64,000 nt of DNA from Candidatus Woesebacteria bacterium RIFCSPLOWO2_01_FULL_39_23 (GTDB taxonomy: Bacteria > Patescibacteriota > Microgenomatia > UBA8517), in NCBI GenBank assembly GCA_001793095.1, contig MGHG01000008.1, positions 269 to 64,268 of the forward strand. Direction: 5' to 3'. The notes below the pieces were generated by a model that did not search any database, had not been told where the DNA came from, and saw nothing but the letters and a program-made list of their open reading frames with translations. Positions 3,644 through 64,000 of this stretch are shown one piece after another (within the stretch, counting starts at the first letter, position 1; each line of letters starts with the position of its first letter). The translations under genes and the position numbers were made by a program.

Positions 3644-3679
3644 AAACGTAAAGTAGCGAAGCTACTAATGTTTTAAACT

Positions 3680-3958
3680 ATGTGGTGGTACAACTACTTA
3701 TTAAAAAGCAAAAAAGATAGTAGTTGGTATATTGGTTGTACAAACAATTTAAAGAATAGAGAAAAAATGCACAATTTAGGAAAGGTGAAATCTACAAGAA
3801 ACAGTAAACCATGGGAACTAATATACTACGAGGCCTGTAAAAACAAGATTAATGCCTTTCGAAGAGAAAGATATTTAAAAAGCGGATATGGGAGAAGATT
3901 TTTGAAAAAAAGACTGATGGAATATAACTCGGAACGTAAAGTAATTGAAAATTACTAA
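3680..3958 (+). CDS. GIY-YIG nuclease family protein, small free-standing (URI domain)
   Basis: N-terminal YNYLLKS..SWYIGCTNNLKNR..H matches the GIY-YIG motif; paralogous to the ORFs at 10410 and 41573. Confidence 0.75.
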   Translation: MWWYNYLLKSKKDSSWYIGCTNNLKNREKMHNLGKVKSTRNSKPWELIYYEACKNKINAFRRERYLKSGYGRRFLKKRLMEYNSERKVIENY

Positions 3959-4029
3959 CGTTCTGAAGGTACTGTCCACTTTGGCCCGTAAGTTACTTAA
4001 GATTCCTAAGTATCTTATAATATAACTAT

Positions 4030-4755: not shown

Positions 4756-6852
4756 ATGGAAAGAGTATTCGAAAAAACCGAAAAATACATTCTCTTAATC
4801 ACCATTTTCTTGCTGCCGTTCACGGTTATCACTATTTCTCCTAATCCCTATGTAGTCCCCAAATTGGCTATTGCCGGGTTTGGTATCATACTACTTTTAA
4901 TACTCCTTGCCGTAAGGGTCGTGACGATCGGTAAATTTACGTTCTCACTATCAAATTACGACTTTCCGGTTTTACTTATAGCCGTTACTTATATCTCAAG
5001 TACTGTCATCAAAACTCCCAACAAGATGGAGGCACTCCTTCTTCCCGGTACAACCACCGCTGTTGTTGCCGGAGCGCTGCTTTACTTTCTGGTAAATCAG
5101 GTAAAGAACGGTAGCAAAGAGGCGCTGACAAAAATTCTCTTGATATCCGGAGCTGTCTTTTCTGCTTTCATCATTCTTGCCTTCACCGGCCTTTTTAATT
5201 CAATACCTCAACTCCCTGCTTTTATGAAAGCTAAAACATATTCTCCCGAAGGCGGATACTTGCCCTCAGCAATATATCTTTTAGCTTTGCTCCCACTGGG
5301 TATCGGTACAATCCTCTCGCAAAAGGACATTAATAAACGTGCCGTTAATGCATGTCTTACCCTATTAATATCAGCGGGCTTTCTGATCAGTGCCTGGCAT
5401 CTTCTTCCCAGCAAAGCTTTCTACCCCCGATTTCCAAGTTGGAAAGTGAGCTGGTCAGTCGCCATTGACAGTCTGAAAGAAAGTCCGATATTAGGAATAG
5501 GGCCGGGTAACTATCTGACGGCATTCTCAAGGTACAGACCAATCTCTTATAATGCAACCGATCTTTGGGCTCTTAGGTTTGCAACCGCAAACAACCACCT
5601 TATGACCGTATTCACAGAAGCCGGAATAATCGGCCTTGCTGGTTACATTATATTGGCCGTCGCCTACTATAAAAATGCCAAGCGCGACCTGAAAGAGAAA
5701 AAGCTGGTCAACTGGGGCTTTGCAGGTATTTCCGGTTTGGTCTCCTTCCTAATCCTATTCCTCACGACTCTCCTTTTCCCGGCAACGGCCCTTCTCATTA
5801 TCATGTTCTTTATTCTTCTTGCTCTGGGAGCTAAAACAACCGCAACAGCAATTAATCTGACGACTGCCGGTACAAGAGACAACCAGGAAAAGGATGTCAC
5901 CTCAAGACTTCCTGCAATCCTTGTTAGCCTGCCTGTTTTTGCTCTTGTTGTCTGGGGAGCTTACAAAGGCGGCCGGATACTTCTGGCTGAATACTATTTC
6001 CAAAGATCCTTGACAGCTCTTGCAAATAACGAAGCCAAAAATACCTACGACAACATGAGAAGGGCAATTATTCTTAATCCCCGTGTTGACAGATATCGTG
6101 CTTCTTTTTCCAGGGTGAATTTGGTCTTGGCTGACTCGGTTGCAAAGAAAGCCATTACACCTCCTCCTCCCTCCGGCCCCGAGGGCTCCAGCTCAGCAGG
6201 CATCCTCTCCGAAAAAGACCAAAACGACATTTCTCAAATGATCCAGGTTGCCATATCTGAGGCTAAAGCGACGGTTGCCTTAAACCCTCTGCGGGCTGCC
6301 AACTGGGAAATATTGGGTCGAACATATCAATCAATAATTCCTCTTGCAAAAGGAGCCGATGTTTTTGCTGCTCAATCATTCAGACAGGCAATTGCCCTGG
6401 ACCCGGTTAATCCAAGTTACAGAATAATACTGGGTGGTTTATATTACGGCGCTAAAGATTACGAGACGGCAACACGCATTTACGAACTGGCAGTTGCAAC
6501 AAAGCCTGACCTGGCCAACTCTCACTTCAACCTTGCTTATTCTTATTCCCAGCAAGGCAAGACTGATTTAGCCATTCAGCAGATGACCTTGACCTTGTCT
6601 CTCTTGGACCCCAAGAGTAAGGATTATGAAACTGCAAAAGCAGCACTTGACACTATGGAAGCAAAGAAGAAAACCGCTACTGAGGCAACCGCTGGAGAAA
6701 ATCTTACTCCTCCTGCACAGCCAACCCCGGCAATCAAGCCCCAAGTTGAATTACCCGCAGGTAGTGAACCACCTGAGGCTCCCATTACACCAACAGCTAC
6801 ACCGATCCCGGAAAATTCGGAGCCGTCCCCCACTCCCACAGTCCAACCCTAA
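4756..6852 (+). CDS. O-antigen ligase (Wzy_C)-like polytopic membrane protein with C-terminal TPR repeats and a Pro-rich tail
   Basis: About 10 TM helices, TPR-like repeats (ALDP.N..Y...G..Y), P/T/E-rich C-terminus. ATG at 4756 is preceded by AAGGAG; the track start at 4702 is a TTG inside a TTGACA box. Confidence 0.6.
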   Translation: MERVFEKTEKYILLITIFLLPFTVITISPNPYVVPKLAIAGFGIILLLILLAVRVVTIGKFTFSLSNYDFPVLLIAVTYISSTVIKTPNKMEALLLPGTTTAVVAGALLYFLVNQVKNGSKEALTKILLISGAVFSAFIILAFTGLFNSIPQLPAFMKAKTYSPEGGYLPSAIYLLALLPLGIGTILSQKDINKRAVNACLTLLISAGFLISAWHLLPSKAFYPRFPSWKVSWSVAIDSLKESPILGIGPGNYLTAFSRYRPISYNATDLWALRFATANNHLMTVFTEAGIIGLAGYIILAVAYYKNAKRDLKEKKLVNWGFAGISGLVSFLILFLTTLLFPATALLIIMFFILLALGAKTTATAINLTTAGTRDNQEKDVTSRLPAILVSLPVFALVVWGAYKGGRILLAEYYFQRSLTALANNEAKNTYDNMRRAIILNPRVDRYRASFSRVNLVLADSVAKKAITPPPPSGPEGSSSAGILSEKDQNDISQMIQVAISEAKATVALNPLRAANWEILGRTYQSIIPLAKGADVFAAQSFRQAIALDPVNPSYRIILGGLYYGAKDYETATRIYELAVATKPDLANSHFNLAYSYSQQGKTDLAIQQMTLTLSLLDPKSKDYETAKAALDTMEAKKKTATEATAGENLTPPAQPTPAIKPQVELPAGSEPPEAPITPTATPIPENSEPSPTPTVQP

Positions 6853-10409: not shown

Positions 10410-10799
10410 TCACCTTCTCTCCCGCACCAATTTAGCTAAAGAAAGACTTCCAGATATTCGTTTCTTTAGTTCATTGAGTGCTTGTCCATAATTTTTTAAT
10501 CTATATTCACGGGTCATTGCGTCTTCTTTTGATTTATGACGTCCTCCGCGGACCAAGAGTCCGCGGTTTCCCTCTAAAGGAGGACGACATATCAAGTTCA
10601 ATTCATCTCCGGGCTGATAGCCCGGAGTTTTCTCGAAATTGCTATAACTCTCATTGTATACTAAAATCCAAGGCCCTTTTTTTCTGGTAGAGAAACTCCT
10701 GTTTGTATTATGTTCAACAATCCTTTTTTTAATATTATTTGTATAACCTATGTAAAGCTCTCCGGTAACGAAACTTACCAATATGTAAACATAATACAT
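10410..10799 (-). CDS. GIY-YIG nuclease family protein carrying a ~35-aa in-frame GC-rich palindromic insertion
   Basis: MYYVYILVS..ELYIGYTNNIKKR..H motif. Likely true start is the ATG at 10799; the track's TTG at 10826 reads through the inverted-repeat arm. Insert NFEKTPGYQPGDELNLICRPPLEGNRGLLVRGGRHK is absent from the two paralogs. Confidence 0.7.
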   Translation of the reverse strand: MYYVYILVSFVTGELYIGYTNNIKKRIVEHNTNRSFSTRKKGPWILVYNESYSNFEKTPGYQPGDELNLICRPPLEGNRGLLVRGGRHKSKEDAMTREYRLKNYGQALNELKKRISGSLSLAKLVRERR

Positions 10800-10817
10800 A
10801 GCTAATTTGGTGCGGGA
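10421..10817 (-). mobile_element. Hairpin element with ~18-bp terminal inverted repeats (TCCCGCACCAATTTAGCT / AGCTAATTTGGTGCGGGA) whose loop encodes a GIY-YIG nuclease
   Basis: Arms at 10421-10437 and 10800-10817 are near-perfect reverse complements. Same arm family as the 41553/41844 element and the three 23S rRNA insertions. Confidence 0.6.
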
Positions 10818-10829
10818 CTCTACCAAAAA

Positions 10830-11408
10830 TTATTTTCCTATAACTACCCTAGCCGAGGCGGTTGAATTTTCCAACTCACCTGCAACAGACGCTATCCCAT
10901 ATTTATCTTTAATATCCGTAAGTAACACATCTATGCTATCTTTATATTTAGAATTTACCATAACATAGTTTGTAGCACTCGACTTAGTATTTCCAACCAG
11001 ATTTATGACATAACCAAGCTCTTTTAATTCGTCCGCCACCTTCCCCGCTACGCCCGGTCGACCGGAACCGTTTAATACCTCAAGGTTAATTTCATCCCTG
11101 CCCAGTTGATCTGACACCGCCCCCGAAATTGTTACCTCAGTAGCCGTCTCTTTACTACTTTCAATTACTGTAGCTTTTTCCTCGGTATCGACCGGCATTT
11201 TTATCTTAAGATATAAAAGTGAACCTGTCGCCAGTATGATCACAACAAGAAGCATCAGTCCTACATAATAAATACGCCTGTTACTCGTCTCTAAAGGTAT
11301 CTCTTCTCTCTCCGAGCCGGAGGTCTCTTCCTCCTGGCCAGAAGTCCTTCCGGACTGGTGGCCGAGCCGGTGGCTCTCTTGATCACTATTCTGATTTTTA
11401 GTAGCCAT
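10830..11408 (-). CDS. LytR_C (LytR/CpsA/Psr C-terminal) domain membrane protein
   Basis: Single TM, then VLNGSGRPGVAGKVADELKELGYVI..VGN, typical of the LytR_C domain. Confidence 0.55.
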   Translation of the reverse strand: MATKNQNSDQESHRLGHQSGRTSGQEEETSGSEREEIPLETSNRRIYYVGLMLLVVIILATGSLLYLKIKMPVDTEEKATVIESSKETATEVTISGAVSDQLGRDEINLEVLNGSGRPGVAGKVADELKELGYVINLVGNTKSSATNYVMVNSKYKDSIDVLLTDIKDKYGIASVAGELENSTASARVVIGK

Positions 11409-39778: not shown

Positions 39779-39973
39779 ATGTTTAGTTCACTTCGCAACA
39801 TCGGTCTTCCGGAAATACTTATTATCGCAGCAGTTCTCGTTTTACTCTTCGGAGGCAAAAAGATCAGAGAGCTATCGCGAGGCCTGGGTGAATCGACAAA
39901 AGAGTTGAAAAACATTAAAAAAGAGATTAAGGGTGAAACGGAAGAGGAAAAAGTAGCCCATACGACTGAATAA
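39779..39973 (+). CDS. tatA: Twin-arginine translocase subunit TatA/E, paralog 1
   Basis: GLPEILIIAAVLVLLFGGKKIRELSRGLGESTKELK, the canonical TatA TM helix plus amphipathic helix. Confidence 0.8.
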   Translation: MFSSLRNIGLPEILIIAAVLVLLFGGKKIRELSRGLGESTKELKNIKKEIKGETEEEKVAHTTE

Positions 39974-39979
39974 AATACT

Positions 39980-40120
39980 ATGCGTAATATCGGCACAACT
40001 GAACTCGTAATTATTGCACTTATACTTCTTTTCCTGTTCGGTGGCAAGAAAATTCCCGAATTTATCAAAGGCCTCGGCAAAGCTATTGAGGAATTTCGCC
40101 GCGCTTCAAAGGAAAGCTAA
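39980..40120 (+). CDS. tatA: TatA paralog 2 (46 aa; below the ORF-track length cut-off)
   Basis: Translation MRNIGTTELVIIALILLFLFGGKKIPEFIKGLGKAIEEFRRASKES; ATG 7 nt after the previous stop. Confidence 0.7.
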   Translation: MRNIGTTELVIIALILLFLFGGKKIPEFIKGLGKAIEEFRRASKES

Positions 40121-40130
40121 CTCTCTATTG

Positions 40131-40260
40131 CCCCACACCAATTCCAGCTAAGTTTTCGGACACCTTTACTGTGAAATGCGAAATGCCTCAATCTGGTATT
40201 AAGCCGATTTCGGCTCCCAGAAGTTAAATTTCGGTGACCTCGTGTAGAATTTGTGCGGGG
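40131..40260. repeat. Degenerate copy of the CCCCGCACC hairpin element (CCCCACACCAATTCCAGCTA ... TAGAATTTGTGCGGGG), ORF-less
   Basis: Arms resemble the 23S IVS and GIY-YIG element arms with 3-4 mismatches; lies between tatA2 and tatA3. Confidence 0.45.
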
Positions 40261-40296
40261 CTTGCACTTTAGCTTTGAACAAACTATCATTTTAAT

Positions 40297-40593
40297 ATGC
40301 TAGGTAATCTTGGATCTCCTGAAATTTTAGTCATAGGAATAGTTCTTCTCATGCTTTTCGGCAGTAAAAAACTTAATGAACTTGCACGCGGACTCGGTGA
40401 ATCCTCGAAAGAATACAAAAAGCTTAAAAACGAATATCAAAAAGCACTTAATGACGACCCTGACGTTGAAGAACAATCTACATCCGAAGATAGTGTAACT
40501 TTAAAATCTGAAAGGTCTCCGACCCGGAGGGTCTCTCCCCGAGCTGGAGAGCTCTCTGAGCAGGAAGCTGGCCTGGAAGGAGGTGAAGAGTAA
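40297..40593 (+). CDS. tatA: TatA/TatB-like paralog 3 with acidic C-terminal extension
   Basis: LGSPEILVIGIVLLMLFGSKKLNELARGLGESSKEYKKLK, then a D/E/S-rich tail. Confidence 0.75.
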   Translation: MLGNLGSPEILVIGIVLLMLFGSKKLNELARGLGESSKEYKKLKNEYQKALNDDPDVEEQSTSEDSVTLKSERSPTRRVSPRAGELSEQEAGLEGGEE

Positions 40594-40740
40594 ATGCTAG
40601 GAAGATTCGGCGTAGCTGAACTATTAATTATTGCATTTCTTTTAGTCCTATTCTTTGGCGGAAAGAAAATTCCGGAATTTATACGAGGTTTAGGTGAAGC
40701 AGTTCGTGAATTTAAAAAAGGTGCCAAGGAAGAAAAGTAA
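40594..40740 (+). CDS. tatA: TatA paralog 4 (48 aa; missed by the ORF track)
   Basis: MLGRFGVAELLIIAFLLVLFFGGKKIPEFIRGLGEAVREFKKGAKEEK; ATG directly abuts the previous stop (TAAATG). Confidence 0.7.
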   Translation: MLGRFGVAELLIIAFLLVLFFGGKKIPEFIRGLGEAVREFKKGAKEEK

Positions 40741-40791
40741 AGCACAAGACCAAAATTCGTCGACACATATGCCCTAGCCAGAGACTGCTAT

Positions 40792-41538
40792 ATGGAAGAA
40801 GAAAGTTTCCTACCGGCGACGATACAGGACAGCTTCAATAAATATTTTCCGTATCTGATGGAGATCAGGAAGAGATTGTTTTTTATTGCAGCTATTTTTC
40901 TCGTTTCCGGGATATTTGGGTTTATTTATTATGAAAAAATAATAAGTACAATCCTGCATCTTCTGAACCTGACCGGTGTAAATATTGTCTTTACCTCGCC
41001 CTTCCAGTTTTTTACCTTATCTATAAATAGTGGATTTTTAGTTGGAGTGATTGTGTCCGCCCCGCTCATTTTCGCTCAAATCCTCTCTTTTATAAGGCCT
41101 GCGCTGACCAAAAAGGAATATAAAATTACAATTACTCTTCTCCCCGTCACTATAATTCTTTTCATCCTGGGATTTTTTTACGGTGTATCAATTATGAAAT
41201 ACATCGTGACCATCTTCTACCAAAAATCACAAGAGCTTAATATCGGGAATCTTCTGGACATCAACCTGCTGCTTGGAAAAATAATAACAACGGGCATCCT
41301 TCTCGGAGTTGCCTTTGAATTTCCTATCATTATGACTATTTTAATGCGACTTAATGTCATTAAATACAAAGACTTTATCAAACAGAGATTTTTGGCATAT
41401 TGCGTAGCAATTATATTTGCCGCACTTCTTCCTCCAACCGATATCCTGTCACTGATGCTTTTGACTCTTCCACTTGTAATGCTCTTTGAACTTACGCTAA
41501 TATTGAATAAGCTATTTTTAAAATCGCATTTATTATAA
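40792..41538 (+). CDS. tatC: Twin-arginine translocase subunit TatC
   Basis: Six TM helices with TatC-like spacing (EIRKRLFFIAAIFLVSG ... FAQILSFIRPALTKKE). Confidence 0.75.
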   Translation: MEEESFLPATIQDSFNKYFPYLMEIRKRLFFIAAIFLVSGIFGFIYYEKIISTILHLLNLTGVNIVFTSPFQFFTLSINSGFLVGVIVSAPLIFAQILSFIRPALTKKEYKITITLLPVTIILFILGFFYGVSIMKYIVTIFYQKSQELNIGNLLDINLLLGKIITTGILLGVAFEFPIIMTILMRLNVIKYKDFIKQRFLAYCVAIIFAALLPPTDILSLMLLTLPLVMLFELTLILNKLFLKSHLL

Positions 41539-41552
41539 TAAATTAGCGGGAG

Positions 41553-41844
41553 CCCCGCACCTGATTCTGGCTATGCATTATGTGTATGTTATTCAGAGTA
41601 TAAAATCTTATGAAATATACATCGGCTCTACAAAGAATCTAAAATTAAGACTTGGTAAACATAATGCAAATAAGAATACATCGACAAAAAATAGAGGACC
41701 CTGGATGTTAATTTACACAGAAGTATACAGATCAAAAGACGATGCGACGGAACGGGAATTCCGTCTTAAATACTATGGACGCGCCCTGGCTCAATTAAAA
41801 AGAAGACTCGTTAGGAGTCTTTTGAAGCCAGAATAGGTGCGGGG
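41553..41844 (+). mobile_element. Hairpin element (arms CCCCGCACCTGATTCTGG / CCAGAATAGGTGCGGGG) whose loop is exactly filled by a GIY-YIG ORF
   Basis: ~17-bp inverted repeats at 41553-41570 and 41828-41844. The ATG follows arm 1 by 2 nt and the TAG stop lies within arm 2. Confidence 0.65.
41573..41836 (+). CDS. GIY-YIG nuclease family protein (87 aa)
   Basis: MHYVYVIQS..EIYIGSTKNLKLRLGKHN; inserted between tatC and tatA5. Confidence 0.75.
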   Translation: MHYVYVIQSIKSYEIYIGSTKNLKLRLGKHNANKNTSTKNRGPWMLIYTEVYRSKDDATEREFRLKYYGRALAQLKRRLVRSLLKPE

Positions 41845-41857
41845 GAGGTGATAACTA

Positions 41858-42001
41858 ATGGTAAAAGGTATCGGATCAACTGAATTAATTATTATTGCGA
41901 TTATACTTTTAATTCTTTTCGGCGGAAGGAAATTGCCTGAGCTGGGACGCGGGCTTGGTGAATCAATAAGAGAGCTGAAAAAATCGATGAAAAACAAATA
42001 A
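41858..42001 (+). CDS. tatA: TatA paralog 5 (47 aa; missed by the ORF track)
   Basis: MVKGIGSTELIIIAIILLILFGGRKLPELGRGLGESIRELKKSMKNK; SD GGGGGAGGTG 7 nt upstream. Confidence 0.7.
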   Translation: MVKGIGSTELIIIAIILLILFGGRKLPELGRGLGESIRELKKSMKNK

Positions 42002-54061: not shown

Positions 54062-54420
54062 CTCAAGGAACGGGGTAAGTCAGACTTACCAAGTAGAGCG
54101 GCACACGTCAATAAATCGCAGCCGTGATACCCTGAAGGAACGGGGGACGTCAGACGTCCCGGGTAGAGCGACCCGTAAGAAACTTTTCCACCCTCGAGGA
54201 ACGGGTAGAGCGCCTGCCCAACACTCCACCCGCCCCGCGAAGGAAGAAATCAACAAAGTTCTTACGGGTCAAGCCTGCTTGGGACGTTAATTGCCGAAGG
54301 CTAATTAACCGTCCCCCAACACTCCACCCGCCCCCTCAAGATATCAATCGTCTTCCGCTGCAATTTAAACGTACCTGGCACGTTCGACGTGCCGCCTGAC
54401 CAATTTATCCCGTTTAAGCA
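54062..54420. repeat. GC-rich structured non-coding region with imperfect tandem repeats and nested hairpins
   Basis: GAAGGAACGGGG-[palindrome]-GGTAGAGCG x3; CCAACACTCCACCCGCCCC x2; hairpins GGGACGTTAATTGCCGAAGGCTAATTAACCGTCCC and GGCACGTTCGACGTGCC. Confidence 0.4.
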
Positions 54421-59652: not shown

Positions 59653-59995
59653 ACACTATCCTGAAACAGTAAATTTATTAAAGTCCTCCGAAACTAACCT
59701 TAAGGCTTTTCAGTACTATTCATACACGCCTTAAGGAGCGTTTACAGGAGGATTTCGGTACAAACTAATTTGTACCTCAAAAATTGAGGAGAAAGAAAAA
59801 AGTCTTACTGCAAAAATGCAGAAGATCTTTAGTATAAAGTCTTATCGACTTATTCGGATCAGGTTAGCTTAAGACATTACTGTCCTTCCACACCCTGCCG
59901 AACAACCCGTCTCGCTCTTGCGAGCCAGACGAGGTTCGCCTTGCGGCGACCTGGTATTCTTCCAGGAGTCTAAAATGAACCCTAATCTTAGGAGG

Positions 59996-60028
<33 letters not shown>

Positions 60029-60154
60029 CTTGGGAATATAGCTACCCGGCTTTGCGGCTGACGCCACAACCGGCACACCAGAGATTCCCCCATGCTGGTC
60101 CTCTCGTACTGAGCACAGCTTCCTTCAAGGTTCTACGATTCCACCGGATAGAGT

Positions 60155-60187
<33 letters not shown>

Positions 60188-60753
60188 ACGTACCACTTTA
60201 ATGGGCGAACAGACCAACCCTTGGCACCTTCTCCAGCGCCAGGATGTGGTGAGCCGACATCGAGGTAGCGATCCGCGCCGTCGCTATGGACGCTCGGGCG
60301 CGACTACTCTGTTATCCCCGGGGTAGCTTTTATCCGTTAAGCTCCAACCCTTCCATGCAGGATTGGAGGATCACTAAGACCTACTTTCGTACCTGCTTGA
60401 GCCGTCACTCTCGCAGTCAAGCTGGCTTTTGCCTTTATACATTACGCACGATGTCCATCCGTGCTAAGCCAACCTTTGTACCCTTGCGTTACTCTTTGGC
60501 AAGGTACCGCCCCAGTAAAACTGCCCACCTAACACTTTCCCTTCCCGAGTATTCATCGGGATTAGGTAAGACTTGCCACGCTCTAAAGGGAGGTGTTTCA
60601 GTGTCGCTCGCGCATAGCTCGCAAATGTCAAATTACAAAAAAGCAAATGATAAATTAGTTTCATTTAGCATTCATCTTTTTAGCATTTAGCATTTCCGTG
60701 CTACACACGGGCTCCCTCCTACTCTAAACAATTAGATCGCACAAACCAATGTT

Positions 60754-60790
<37 letters not shown>

Positions 60791-60858
60791 GTGGAATTAG
60801 GCCGCGTCTTCACAGCCAACGCAATTTCGCCGAGTAGAGGCTTGAGACAGTTGCTAAC

Positions 60859-60895
<37 letters not shown>

Positions 60896-60922
60896 GAGGG
60901 ACTTCGCTACCGTAGAACAGTT

Positions 60923-61357
60923 CAATATGTTATCCCGATCGAATCCGGGACTACGATTTTACGTAGACTGCATATTGCTATGCAGATCGGACTATATCAT
61001 CCACGTTCATGTAAACTGAACGTAGCCTAGCGTGTAGTCTCTGAGGATTCCTTCAAAAATTACTAATTGACTTAATTGCTCTAATTTCTAACAAATTATT
61101 TAATGACCAATTTCAAATGACTAAAACAAAACTTAGTTGGGTCATTCTTAAATTGGGGTTTGATTAGGTTAATTAGAAATTAGTAATTAGAAATTACTTG
61201 GAGGCCTTTCCTGCTGATTGTCCGCACTGATCGCATTGTTACCATTTTAAATGGTAGCGTCAGATACTTCAACTGTTCGTTATTTCCATTCTACTTGAAA
61301 ATCACTACAGTACGGATATTCCAGCATATAGCTAGGTTTTAGAACTACGACTATTTC
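60923..61357 (-). mobile_element. ORF-less group I intron in 23S rRNA at the L1917-1923-type site (between GUAACUAU and AACUGUUCUACGGUAGCG)
   Basis: 5' exon ends in U and pairs with the internal guide GUAGUU (U.G at the splice site); intron ends in G. Core elements present: Q-like AATCAGCAGG, R TCAGAGACTACACG, S GATATAGTCCG. Confidence 0.7.
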
Positions 61358-61606
61358 ATAGTTACTGCTGCCGTTTACCGGAGCTTGACATTGCTGCGCT
61401 TCGCGCAAAAAAGCCAAATTATAAAAAACAAAATGATAAATTAAATTCATTTAGCATTTGCCTTTTGGTCATTTAACATTCTTTGTGCGAAGCACAACGC
61501 CGCTTAACTTACCGGCACTGGGCAGGCGTCAGCCCGTATACTTTGCCTTTCAGCTTTGCACGGACCTGTGTTTTTGATAAACAGTCGGTTAGCAAACATT
61601 TGCTGC

Positions 61607-61743
61607 GCCCCGCACCAATTTAGCAGCTGATTCTCCAAAATATGAATCCTACTTATATAAAACTTAAGTAATATTATTCAAGTTAAATATAAAATAAGAC
61701 TCAAATTCGAATCAGTAATATTTTCTGCTAAATTGGTGCGGGG
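61607..61743 (-). repeat. 23S rRNA intervening sequence 1 (helix-63 region): 19-bp perfect stem GCCCCGCACCAATTTAGCAG / CTGCTAAATTGGTGCGGGG with ~98-nt AT-rich loop
   Basis: Inserted at the tip of a native helix; arms share the TIR family of the GIY-YIG elements. Confidence 0.7.
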
Positions 61744-62120
61744 AGGATATCTTCCGAAGTTACATCCAGCTTTTTTGCCGAGTTCCTTAAACCTCTTTCT
61801 CTCGCTCGCCTTACTATTCTCTAGCTGCCCACCTGTGTTGGTTTGCGGTACGACTTGATTTAGATCTCGCTGCGAACCTTTTCTTGTAGACAGAATGGGA
61901 TAAAATTGCCCCAATCTCTTAGGGCTCTGCATTGCTGCTTGATTAATCGTTTCAGCGGATTTTCCAACTGACCCTATCTAACAGCTTACACCCCGATATC
62001 ACATCGGGACTTTAATCATCCTATCCAGTCAATCCCCAGCTCCACGTTCAGTACTTGCGCATGAACGTGGTGGGCGATCTAAAACAAATAGTGGAATTTT
62101 AACCACTCATCCATCGACTA

Positions 62121-62258
62121 CCCCCGCACCAAAATGGCATCTTATTTTCCAAAATATGAATCTTACTCTTAATAATCACTAAACTATATTCTTCAAATAA
62201 ATTATTAAGGTTAATCTGATCCAATTAAGGTAATATTTTATGCCACTTAGGTGCGGGG
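62121..62258 (-). repeat. 23S rRNA intervening sequence 2 (helix-45 site): stem CCCCCGCACCAAAATGGCAT / ATGCCACTTAGGTGCGGGG
   Basis: Replaces the E. coli GAGGCC-GAAA-GGC tetraloop hairpin; ~100-nt AT-rich loop shares TCCAAAATATGAATC with IVS 1. Confidence 0.7.
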
Positions 62259-62636
62259 CTCATCTTAGGTATCGACTAACCCGTCGTGGACGAACCTAGC
62301 GACGGAAACCTTGGGCTTACGGCGTCCCAGATTCTCACTGGGATTGTACGCTACTCATACCGGCATTCTCACTTCCGTACCTTCCACTCCGCCTCACGGC
62401 GAAGCTTCACTGGATACGGAACGCTCCCCTACCACACCCGCTCGCAGAGCGGGAATGACCAATTTCCAATGGCAAATAACCAATGTATTATTAGAAGCCA
62501 TATTTAAACTTACTGCTTCTTTTACATTTAGCATTTATCATTTAGCATTTATCATTCCTGTTCTACGAACAGGTATCTCTAGCTTCGGCACGCAACTTAT
62601 CCTCGATAAATTTTAGGCGCCTGCTTCCATCGACCA

Positions 62637-62693
<57 letters not shown>

Positions 62694-63204
62694 TTACGGA
62701 AACCGACTTCCTTTCAAACTTAGCTGCGATTTAGAGGCCTTAGCCGAGAGTCTGGGTTGTTTCCCTTTGGACGCATCAGCTTAGCCCGATGCGACTGTCT
62801 AGTACGTTGTTATATATTGTTATTCGGAGTTTGGTTGAATGAAATTGCTTGCGCTCTCTCATCCATCCAGTATCTCTACCATCAATATACTTTTCGTACC
62901 ACGGTCCCTATAGACCTTTCGGGGAGAACCAGCTATCTCCAGGCTCGGTTGGCATATTACCACTATCCACAAGTCATCCCACGTTATTGCAACAACGACG
63001 GGTTCGGGCCTCCTTCCAATCTTCATCGGAATTCACCCTGCTCATGGCTAGATCGCCTGGTTTCGGGTCGGCCATCAGATACTCGTTACCAAAAGGTAAC
63101 ACGCGCTATTCGCACTCGGTTTCCCTTCACCTCCACCCGTTTAAGGGTTTAGATAGTTATCTAACGGCCACTCGCCGGCTCATTCTTCAATAGGCACGAT
63201 ATCA

Positions 63205-63341
63205 CCCCGCACCAAGTTGGCAGAAAATATTTCATTGATTTGAATGTTAACATTAACTAAACTTTAAGTTTATTGAAAGTTTAAACAATAAATAAACTCA
63301 TGTCTCATATTTTGAAAATCAGCTGCCAATTTGGTGCGGGG
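63205..63341 (-). repeat. 23S rRNA intervening sequence 3 (helix-25 site): stem CCCCGCACCAAGTTGGCAG / CTGCCAATTTGGTGCGGGG
   Basis: Classic IVS position (helix 25); one G.U in an otherwise perfect 19-bp stem. Confidence 0.7.
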
Positions 63342-63406
63342 CTCTATCGGTTTGTCCGCAAACAGTTTCAGGTTCTATTTCACTGGGCGTCTCGCCCTTC
63401 TTTTCG

Positions 63407-63438
<32 letters not shown>

Positions 63439-63661
63439 ATCTACCTATATTTAGCCTTGGAGGATGGTTCCCCCAGCTTCCCACGGTGTAGATGCACCGT
63501 GGTACTTGGGATATTCCTAAGATTCTTTATAAATTTTGTATACAAGACTTTCACTTTCTATGGTGTACCATTCCAGATACTTCTACTATTCATAAAGAAC
63601 CCATATTGGAATCCCGCAACCCTGCGCCCATATTCTTGCGAATATGGGGCAGTTTAGGCTA

Positions 63662-63693
<32 letters not shown>

Positions 63694-64000
63694 TCTCGTT
63701 TGATTTATTTTCCTCACCCTACTTAGATGTTTCAGTTCGGGCGGTCTCCCCCGCTACGGTTATACCCCGACAAGTCGGGATTTTTACCATAGGGTAACCA
63801 AATATAATTATGGTTGGGTTTCCCCATTCGGACACCGTCGGATCAATGGATCGTGGCTCCTCCCCGGCGATTATCGCAACCATGTGCGTCCTTCTTCGGT
63901 AGGTAAATCCTAGGCATTCACTGTCTGCGTTAGTAAAGACTTCAATTACGTTCCTGTACGACCCCGCAATAAAGCGAGATATTACAGGAAACGGCCTTTC

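Follow-up and report, generated by a model that had tools for sequence, protein, structure and literature searches.

What is a complete gene for a small nuclease, framed by an almost perfect inverted repeat, doing between two protein-export genes? The question is raised by a stretch of 64,000 nucleotides (the window) from contig MGHG01000008.1 of Candidatus Woesebacteria bacterium RIFCSPLOWO2_01_FULL_39_23, a member of the Candidate Phyla Radiation (CPR), in which a 292-base insert (41553-41844) lies between tatC and tatA5. The element is an insertion in the tatC-tatA5 spacer of this Woesebacteria lineage, situated at the 5' edge of an existing Shine-Dalgarno (SD) sequence. It probably represents one copy of a family of mobile elements of the CPR that resemble insertion sequences (IS) and carry a structure-specific GIY-YIG nuclease as their sole gene.

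Anatomy of the tat-locus copy

The insert begins with arm 1, the left terminal inverted repeat (TIR; CCCCGCACCTGATTCTGGCT, 41553-41572, forward strand), and ends with arm 2, the right TIR (AGCCAGAATAGGTGCGGGG, 41826-41844, forward strand). Both were delimited by direct reading, by the inverted-repeat score, and by conservation and covariation in the family, and they match at 19 positions with one bulged G over 20 and 19 nt, respectively. The local score of this inverted repeat is 33, compared to a mean of 13.3 (standard deviation 2.2, maximum 24) in 2000 shuffles, which corresponds to a z-score of 9.2. The 18-mer of the arm is found once in the window and was never obtained in 100 shuffles. 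An origin by chance is ruled out by this z-score together with the recurrence of the same design in about 72 of 81 homologous loci. The outer CCCCGCAC of arm 1 is the terminal box that is conserved throughout the family. The long-range stem appears in the minimum free energy fold and in the centroid fold alike (41540-41860; z -4.3).

The space between the arms is filled by an open reading frame (ORF) for a single-domain GIY-YIG nuclease of 87 aa (41573-41836, forward strand; Pfam PF01541, E 1.1e-17, 64.5 bits compared to a cut-off of 22.6 bits). An identical protein is recorded for the metagenome-assembled genome of Candidatus Woesebacteria bacterium RIFCSPLOWO2_01_FULL_39_23. The initial annotation had described a discrete hairpin element whose loop is filled by a GIY-YIG ORF, and the inverted repeat and the domain match both agree with this description. 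The arms that it listed (CCCCGCACCTGATTCTGG, 41553-41570, and CCAGAATAGGTGCGGGG, 41828-41844) are present as described, but the pairing is two base pairs longer than written. Similarly, the start codon was correctly placed at 41573 but not 2 nt past arm 1: because the arm pairing extends through CT, the ATG directly abuts the arm with a gap of 0 nt. The TAG (41834-41836) had rightly been located within arm 2, which thus contains the last codons of the ORF together with the stop. A search for a promoter or terminator borne by the element gave nothing above shuffle expectation.

The element is absent from related tat loci

The host gene upstream is tatC (40792-41538, forward strand; Pfam TatC, E 4.8e-40) and the host gene downstream is tatA5 (41858-42001, forward strand; Pfam TatA_B_E, E 2.5e-15), both also identified by synteny. 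Arm 2 is followed by GAGGTGATAACTA and then by the tatA5 ATG at 41858. The SD of tatA5, GGAGGTGA (41844-41851, forward strand), ends 6 nt ahead of this ATG and begins at the last paired G of the stem, so that SD and arm 2 overlap as noticed before.

Syntenic tat loci of related Woesebacteria were found by a TatC protein search followed by contig look-ups. They share the order pth, three to four tatA genes, tatC, tatA5, prsW, a GNAT gene, and a gene for an SH3 protein; downstream of tatA5 the window likewise encodes a PrsW-like protein and a GNAT acetyltransferase. The tatC-tatA5 spacer comprises 24 nt (TTCTCAGAAAGAAGGTGAAATGTT) in the loci L088 and L089, whose TatC is 72% identical to that of the window, 31 nt in L090 (69%), and 121 nt in L087 (74%), and none of these spacers contains a GIY-YIG ORF or the arms. 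When the element and one GGAG (41553-41847) are deleted in silico, the window aligns to L088/L089 without gaps, the spacer is then 24 nt long, and AGGTGA precedes the tatA5 ATG by 6 nt in both. The comparison of tat synteny for presence or absence, as proposed in the initial annotation, thus revealed empty sites, in agreement with the claim that the element was inserted into the tat cluster. The accompanying suggestion that the element supplies the expression signals of tatA5 cannot be upheld. Because the element-free relatives carry AGGTGA at the same distance from the tatA5 start, the SD is host sequence that is older than the insertion, and the element is not its source. Scanning metagenomes with TatC gave two loci only, neither of which had a usable junction.

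Five TatA paralogues surround the single tatC of the window (39779-42001).

A family of genes enclosed in stems

A scan of one genome per species yielded at least 476 relatives, and the best 80 loci, mostly from Patescibacteria/CPR, were analysed. These loci were seen with 3-kb flanks, while the present genome is represented by 64 kb. In about 72 of the 81 homologous loci the ORF is surrounded by an inverted repeat of 15-30 nt (z 7-18). The closest homologues (L001 and L002, with 71-75% protein identity) are located upstream of an unrelated gene, and their arms of 18-20 nt (TCCAGCACCTTTCAGGCT / AGCCTGAAAGGTGCTGGA) differ by compensatory changes. Neither the loss of the repeats in relatives nor the disappearance of the arm similarity, which the initial annotation had named as arguments against the element, was found in these homologues or in the family at large. 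Across the family, elements are 286-356 nt long, the ORF starts at a distance of 0-25 nt from arm 1, and arm 2 includes its stop codon.

The termini follow the pattern CCCC[C/G]CAC...GTG[C/G]GGGG, of which the outer 8-11 bp are conserved (CCCC[C/G]CAC(ACC)), while the inner 10 bp or so are variable yet complementary. In 54 distinct arm pairs anchored on the invariant CAC, the stem positions +3 to +13 are paired in cis in 91-100% of the cases compared to 41-60% with shuffled partners, and three to six types of base pairs occur at each position. In addition, several loci contain ORF-less copies of 27-173 nt next to the ORF copies, which have the same termini and 4-nt repeats and resemble MITEs (miniature inverted-repeat transposable elements). 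One ORF-less copy resides inside a 16S gene. The elements show no orientation bias relative to neighbouring protein genes (33 versus 30 for the strand of the downstream gene) and keep no constant distance to the downstream start.

These observations bear on the idea that the stem is a device of the tat operon acting at the RNA level, either as an RNase III site or as a hairpin sequestering the SD of tatA5, with the ORF being incidental. The CACCT in arm 1 and the AGGTG in arm 2 indeed resemble anti-SD and SD sequences, the stem ends at the SD of tatA5, and the RNA fold retains the stem. However, related tat operons function in its absence, and elements of the same design are present in unrelated contexts, pointing either way relative to protein genes. 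In addition, AGGTG is not conserved in the family, in which many arms read TTGGTG or TTAGTG, and sense-strand G.U pairs are not in excess. A regulatory stem of this kind is therefore highly improbable.

Flanking repeats and target site

For the analysis of flanks, an element was taken to begin strictly with the first C of its C-run and to end with the last G of its G-run. With these boundaries, 31 of 63 distinct elements with and without ORF are immediately bordered by an exact direct repeat of at least 4 nt, while permuted flanks would give 2.4. The repeat is exactly 4 nt long in 28 of the 31 cases, and the repeats mostly resemble T-T-R-A (TTGA six times, TTAT and TTTA four times each, ATAA three times). 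In a set of 28 elements with matching flanks of 4 nt, the left repeat is preceded on its 5' side by four G-rich bases, with GG at positions -6/-5 in 13 compared to about 1.4 expected from base composition. The mirror image, CC on the right side, is seen in only three. Because the G-run adjoins the left repeat, on the side of the ORF start, the target resembles the right end of the element itself, namely a G-run plus 4 nt. Because the G-run is one-sided, the insertion is oriented relative to the ORF. A duplication of 5-8 nt that includes the G-run had been considered before and was replaced, once the ends were strictly defined, by a duplication of 4 bp after the target G-run.

The hairpins might also be MITEs that are moved by an unrelated transposase encoded elsewhere, with the GIY-YIG gene as a passenger, for example a homing endonuclease that colonised the loops of ORF-less hairpins, in the way known from intron loops, and had no share in forming the TIRs and the target-site duplication. 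TIRs together with a 4-bp repeat are typical of DDE transposases in several IS families, hydrolytic GIY-YIG chemistry is unable to rejoin DNA, and the copies with and without ORF have nothing but the termini in common. It is hard to reconcile with a mere passenger, however, that the gene sits exactly between the termini in about 72 of 81 cases from many CPR phyla, beginning 0-25 nt from arm 1 and ending in arm 2. The one-sided target G-run that resembles the end of the element also fits one small, site-specific nuclease acting at the ends and at the target. No longer TIR-bounded unit turned up in the sequences examined, in which transposases were not searched for systematically. Overall, we consider MITEs with a passenger gene and an unrelated transposase unlikely.

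Copies in genes for stable RNAs

In four of the 80 loci the ORF element is located inside the 23S rRNA gene, in L027, L032, and L033 at E. coli positions 1105-1186 (the helix 45 site) and in L078 at 540-621 (the helix 25 site). Helix 25 and helix 45 are classical sites of intervening sequences (IVS). In L016, L026, and L045 the element forms the P3 stem-loop of the RNase P RNA, with the P1/P2 sequence CAAGGCAAGCCAGGCAATCG before arm 1 and AGGAAAGTCCG after arm 2. The RNase P RNA of L016 (1440-2134) scores below the Rfam gathering threshold because the insert of about 300 nt splits the gene, and it was recovered at a permissive threshold (E 1.4e-20) and by reading P1/P2 upstream.

In the tRNA genes of L008, L046, L055/L063, and L073, which make up at least four independent cases, the element interrupts the 5' acceptor strand within the first 7-9 nt of the gene. 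Upstream, the left flank retains the former 5' end of the tRNA as a dead copy along with the 4-nt repeat (GGG-CGCG in L073), while the terminal G-run of the element rebuilds positions 1-3 of the working tRNA (L073 locus, 1480-1840). L007 was read in the same way by eye from its flanks alone, with the repeat CGTG and the right terminus GGAGG providing tRNA positions 1-5. The hosts are co-oriented with the ORF, i.e. in sense, in all nine independent RNA-gene cases, for which the probability by chance is about 1 in 500.

A mimicry of tRNA 3' ends by CCCCGCACCA was also considered and rejected. In a tRNA minihelix the polarity is reversed compared to the stem, whose C-rich strand is the 5' strand, and CCA is replaced by CCT or CTA in many arms.

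Other copies and inserts in the window

Searching the window with tblastn revealed three GIY-YIG ORFs. The tat element had been counted as the second of its design, and the first indeed lies at 10421-10816 on the reverse strand, with the arms TCCCGCACCAAATTAGCT / AGCTAAATTGGTGCGGGA. The ATG of its ORF (10443-10799, reverse strand) follows arm 1 immediately and the end of the ORF lies within arm 2; the next gene follows 19 nt later with its SD and ATG. The ORF of this sister element contains a GC-rich in-frame insert of 36 aa. The third GIY-YIG gene (3680-3958) has different flanks with a local hairpin on each side. The hairpin on one side, AACGTAAAGTAGC-GAA-GCTACTAATGTT (about 3646-3673), is repeated in similar form and in direct orientation on the other (about 3929-3966), and the DNA folds of the two have z-scores of -3.2 and -6.6. 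Their layout is like that of the Ssn/NTS systems described below and not a gene in a loop.

The core CCCCGCACC recurs as three convergent pairs about 127 nt apart, all of which are in the 23S rRNA gene (59833-63944, reverse strand). They delimit three ORF-less hairpins with the same termini, for which no strand is assigned and whose positions were derived from the alignment to the E. coli 23S rRNA. The first (CCCCGCACCAATTTAGCAG..., 61608-61743; RNA fold z -11.3) is found at E. coli positions of about 1699-1749 in the helix 63 region, the second (62122-62258; fold z -7.4) at about 1367, and the third (63205-63341; fold z -7.6) at about 540-550 in helix 25. The helix 25 copy is inverted relative to the other two. 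The three are homologous to one another past the termini (z 8.8-10). One terminus of the sister element matches the hairpin at 61608-61743 at 15 of 16 positions. That the ORF-less 23S copies are deletion derivatives of ORF copies was tested and discarded, as the loops show no similarity (z < 2.5) and only the termini are common.

The 23S gene has a length of 4112 nt compared to 2925 nt of the model. In addition to the three hairpins, it contains an insert of 435 nt at E. coli position 1917 (60923-61357), for which no Rfam intron reached the gathering score, and another one with different arms at the helix 45 site (62434-62576). Several smaller inserts share a CATTTAGCATTT motif.

Within the tat cluster, the region between tatA2 and tatA3 might hold a decayed ORF-less copy (40130-40263, no strand assigned), which is weakly indicated by a match of 13 of 15 positions between GCCCCACACCAATTC and GAATTTGTGCGGGGC. 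The fold of this region is not significant (z -1.5). The tatA2-tatA3 spacer (40121-40296) comprises 176 nt in the window compared to 104 nt in L087 and 50 nt in L090, and no match to the terminal box was found in the spacers of these two. In L087, a version of the element palindrome with a short loop, CCCCGCAC-TTTTA-GTGCGGGG, is present at 1133-1160 within the gene called as pth (peptidyl-tRNA hydrolase). The pth product of L087 has 226 aa compared to 174-196 aa in the other syntenic relatives.

GC-rich palindromic islands are found in frame within coding sequences of the window, which has a GC content of 41% (10530-10645, 6141-6220, 11311-11380, 40511-40580, and 54121-54250). One of these islands corresponds to the 36 aa in the ORF of the sister element (DNA fold z -7.0), and another is a C-terminal extension of tatA3. 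Short-word blastn detected no sequence similarity among the islands, and they may constitute a separate class of in-frame palindromic inserts.

The GIY-YIG protein

In an alignment of 24 family sequences the residues Y5, Y16, G18, R26, H30, and E62 are invariant. The AlphaFold model of the protein is confident (pLDDT 90.4) and has the order beta-beta-alpha-beta-alpha-alpha, which is of the GIY-YIG type. According to Foldseek the nearest solved structures are the UPF0213 protein BH0048, SLX1, At-HIGLE, and I-TevI, and BH0048 is also the best match by sequence in the PDB (1.8e-11). The family comprises 3852 clusters at 50% identity and E <= 1e-10. In viral contigs it is essentially absent, with two partial matches of 30 aa. 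The GIY-YIG domain is the only ORF of the element, and none of the known transposase classes (DDE, HUH, Ser, Tyr, or Cas1) is represented in it.

About 45 of the 150 top family representatives are longer, with 210-340 aa. In all five that were examined (P0165, P0171, P0181, P0196, and P0198) residues 1-80 form the GIY-YIG domain, and the N-terminus of a type IV prepilin follows in frame (..GAG|FTLIE.., Pfam N_methyl). In these fusions the nuclease domain replaces the leader peptide that the prepilin peptidase would cut.

Comparison with known systems

The Ssn proteins are single-domain GIY-YIG nucleases of about 94 aa that cut only single-stranded DNA, site-specifically and next to a cognate hairpin repeat termed NTS or SRM (Chenal et al. 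2025, PMC11893778). Such repeats usually border the Ssn genes, a layout that has been compared to IS and REP/RAYT systems by the same authors (PMC11893778). Like the tat copy with its 87 aa, the Ssn proteins (SsnA of Neisseria meningitidis; CDD cd10448) consist of a single GIY-YIG domain of about 85-95 aa. In both systems the gene is bracketed by hairpin-forming repeats that are also found elsewhere in the genome. The architecture is different, however. Each Ssn repeat is a local hairpin of 20-50 nt, whereas the flanks of the CPR elements pair with each other and the gene forms the loop. The C-terminal third of the proteins also differs, with ..LKLRSRALAQLKRRL.. in the CPR family and ..LKKWNRDWKIRLIEEHNPDW.. 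in Ssn, and flanking direct repeats, MITE-like copies, and insertions into RNA genes have not been reported for Ssn.

As stand-ins for Ssn we used SRM-flanked plasmid genes of Azospirillum and Shinella with four canonical SRM copies around the gene. The motif HGTCWYN0-2YYVSBRHN0-5WNVSBRGN0-2RNCYNB was found four times in each of these positive controls (L091 and L092), not at all in the 64-kb window, and once in 231 kb of CPR-type loci. The profile of the CPR family matches the SRM-flanked Azospirillum protein with an hhalign E of 2.8e-14 and the UPF0213 protein YazA of B. subtilis with 6.7e-12. As these matches are about equally good, the family may belong to the cd10448/Ssn clade or to another one such as UPF0213 (cd10456) or the SLX1-like proteins. 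The single UPF0213 gene examined, B. subtilis yazA, is located between trmNF and rsmI and has no such arms, its flanks not having been searched for repeats. In L092, the Azospirillum lipoferum plasmid AZO_p3 (255118-256151), an Ssn-type gene and four SRM/NTS repeats are found between sufB and sufC, inside an operon.

Given the likeness to Ssn, the elements could be a host-domesticated system that is no longer selfish. The nuclease and its hairpins would then have a cellular role, for example in restricting or shaping single-stranded DNA that enters the cell by natural transformation. CPR bacteria depend on DNA uptake and on type IV pili, in-frame fusions to type IV prepilin N-termini are found in many family members, and the catalytic residues are conserved. 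SsnA and the NTS repeats of Neisseria provide a precedent (PMC11893778). Against this, the window contains a handful of copies and not hundreds, and the Ssn repeat motif is absent. It is also difficult to see what a defence or regulatory site would do in rRNA, RNase P RNA, and tRNA genes, and the direct repeats and empty syntenic sites point to insertion events. Domestication thus appears improbable.

Insertions that encode GIY-YIG proteins in CPR rRNA genes have been reported not to be introns, and short insertions to coincide with IVS sites of RNase III (Tsurumaki et al. 2024, PMC11270868); that paper uses neither the word hairpin nor the word palindrome. Like the IVS of 23S rRNA, the elements form extended hairpins at the tips of helices including helices 25 and 45, with a stem of about 20 bp, and some of these carry an ORF. 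This placement holds for the ORF-less copies of the window (helix 25 in the case of 63205-63341), for L027, L032, and L033 (helix 45), and for L078 (helix 25), but not for the tat copy. Unlike the 23S IVS, the family is also found in operon spacers, in RNase P RNA, and at the 5' ends of tRNAs. The conserved termini and the 4-bp repeats characterise the inserts as a mobile element at the DNA level, a link that was not made in the earlier study (PMC11270868).

The elements share with IS200/IS605 and REP/RAYT systems the small size, ends that depend on DNA secondary structure, and ORF-less palindromic repeats. Insertion is likewise oriented and occurs 3' of a short motif in the target to which the end of the element is related. 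However, there is no HUH (Y1) domain, the ends pair mutually instead of forming subterminal hairpins, and the family is flanked by a 4-bp direct repeat while IS200/IS605 elements make no target-site duplication. With classical IS and MITEs the elements have in common TIRs of about 20 bp, a fixed 4-bp flanking repeat, one ORF, and ORF-less derivatives that share the termini alone. They differ from classical DDE IS in that the ORF encodes a GIY-YIG domain of about 85 aa and that the inner halves of the TIRs covary like a stem.

The protein shares its catalytic fold and residues with SLX1, At-HIGLE, UPF0213 (YazA/YhbQ and BH0048), and the homing endonucleases I-TevI and Seg, and homing endonucleases also reside in RNA-neutral inserts of rRNA genes. 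I-TevI and the Seg proteins have a DNA-binding domain, whereas the 87-aa protein is all catalytic domain, and SLX1 acts with its partner SLX4, whereas no partner subunit is present here. Intron ribozymes were not detected by Rfam at the gathering threshold in the window or in 20 loci, and the match to the NCBIfam model grpIintron_endo is far below the cut-off (21 compared to 56 bits).

In summary of these comparisons, the element has the marks of an insertion element, namely TIRs, a flanking direct repeat, empty sites, copies in unrelated contexts, and MITE-like derivatives. It fails the tests for an IS200/IS605 element, a classical DDE IS, and a homing endonuclease. A literature search found no description of such an element, which is best filed as akin to the Ssn nuclease/hairpin systems and to the rRNA intervening sequences.

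A possible mechanism of mobility

How could an element of this kind move? The nuclease, as a relative of the Ssn single-strand nucleases, UPF0213, and SLX1, might recognise the stem at its conserved base once pairing of the arms has produced a single-stranded hairpin or a cruciform. Its breaks would drive excision and insertion at look-alike G-run sites, and rejoining would be left to host repair or replication. In RNA, the stem of about 20 bp would be a substrate of RNase III, and the insert would be cut from the host transcripts as in the case of the rRNA IVS. Through this step the host would be able to tolerate insertions in rRNA, RNase P RNA, and operons, and the ORF would be freed as an mRNA with a short leader. 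An ORF without SD would be explained if RNase III release yielded such an mRNA. Within the tat operon, the element is most likely transcribed together with tatC and tatA5 as a neutral passenger.

Several points weigh against the interpretation as a mobile element driven by its own nuclease. GIY-YIG nucleases act by hydrolysis without a covalent intermediate, and a protein of about 85 aa cannot on its own explain the rejoining of strands or the 4-bp staggered cut of the target. A transposase may act in trans, as the analysis covered 64 kb of the present genome and flanks of 3 kb at the other loci. The role of the GIY-YIG enzyme in mobility is inferred, as is, by analogy, the cleavage of the element stems by RNase III. 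At the tat copy, the candidate left copy of the 4-bp target-site duplication, GGAG (41549-41552, forward strand; direct reading), is ambiguous. Its right copy would be at 41844-41847, sharing the last G of arm 2, and the duplication becomes visible only if the boundary of the G-run is slid by 1 nt. None of the three 23S copies has a flanking direct repeat. Because no SD precedes the ORF of the tat copy, its translation is unexplained. The two ORF copies of the same design in the window are only 36% identical, and nothing in the window has therefore moved recently. Finally, the mismatches in the stems (13 sense G.T, 10 antisense G.T, and 13 others) show no strand bias, so that RNA-level pairing is not specifically supported. 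Distinguishing RNA from DNA pairing by a bias of G.T versus C.A mismatches was also tried and was uninformative (13 versus 10), and the stem may fold on either strand and as RNA or as DNA.

With these points included, the assignment of 41553-41844 to a family of IS-like CPR elements whose sole gene is a structure-specific GIY-YIG nuclease still appears rather likely. We propose only tentatively, and with clearly less confidence, a new class of transposable elements with a GIY-YIG protein of about 85 aa as the sole protein, which would combine recognition of the stem base, oriented insertion at G-runs with a 4-bp duplication, and a stem excisable by RNase III, and which would be the source of many CPR inserts in rRNA, RNase P RNA, and tRNA 5' ends.

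Implications

For annotation, small "hypothetical" GIY-YIG genes in CPR operons, in rRNA and RNase P RNA genes, and beside tRNAs should be flagged as insertions, and split RNase P or rRNA models are to be expected around them. With its 3852 clusters, the family provides small nucleases naturally paired with a defined DNA stem by the thousands, which are of interest as tools for single-strand and structure-specific cutting. If the interpretation is true, the catalogue of bacterial mobile elements would gain a type with a minimal GIY-YIG nuclease as the sole gene, and the partnership of Ssn nucleases and hairpins would be extended to a different architecture with testable recognition sites. The long-obscure rRNA intervening sequences would also obtain a concrete origin at the DNA level, and the unusual abundance of rRNA insertions in the CPR would be explained in part.

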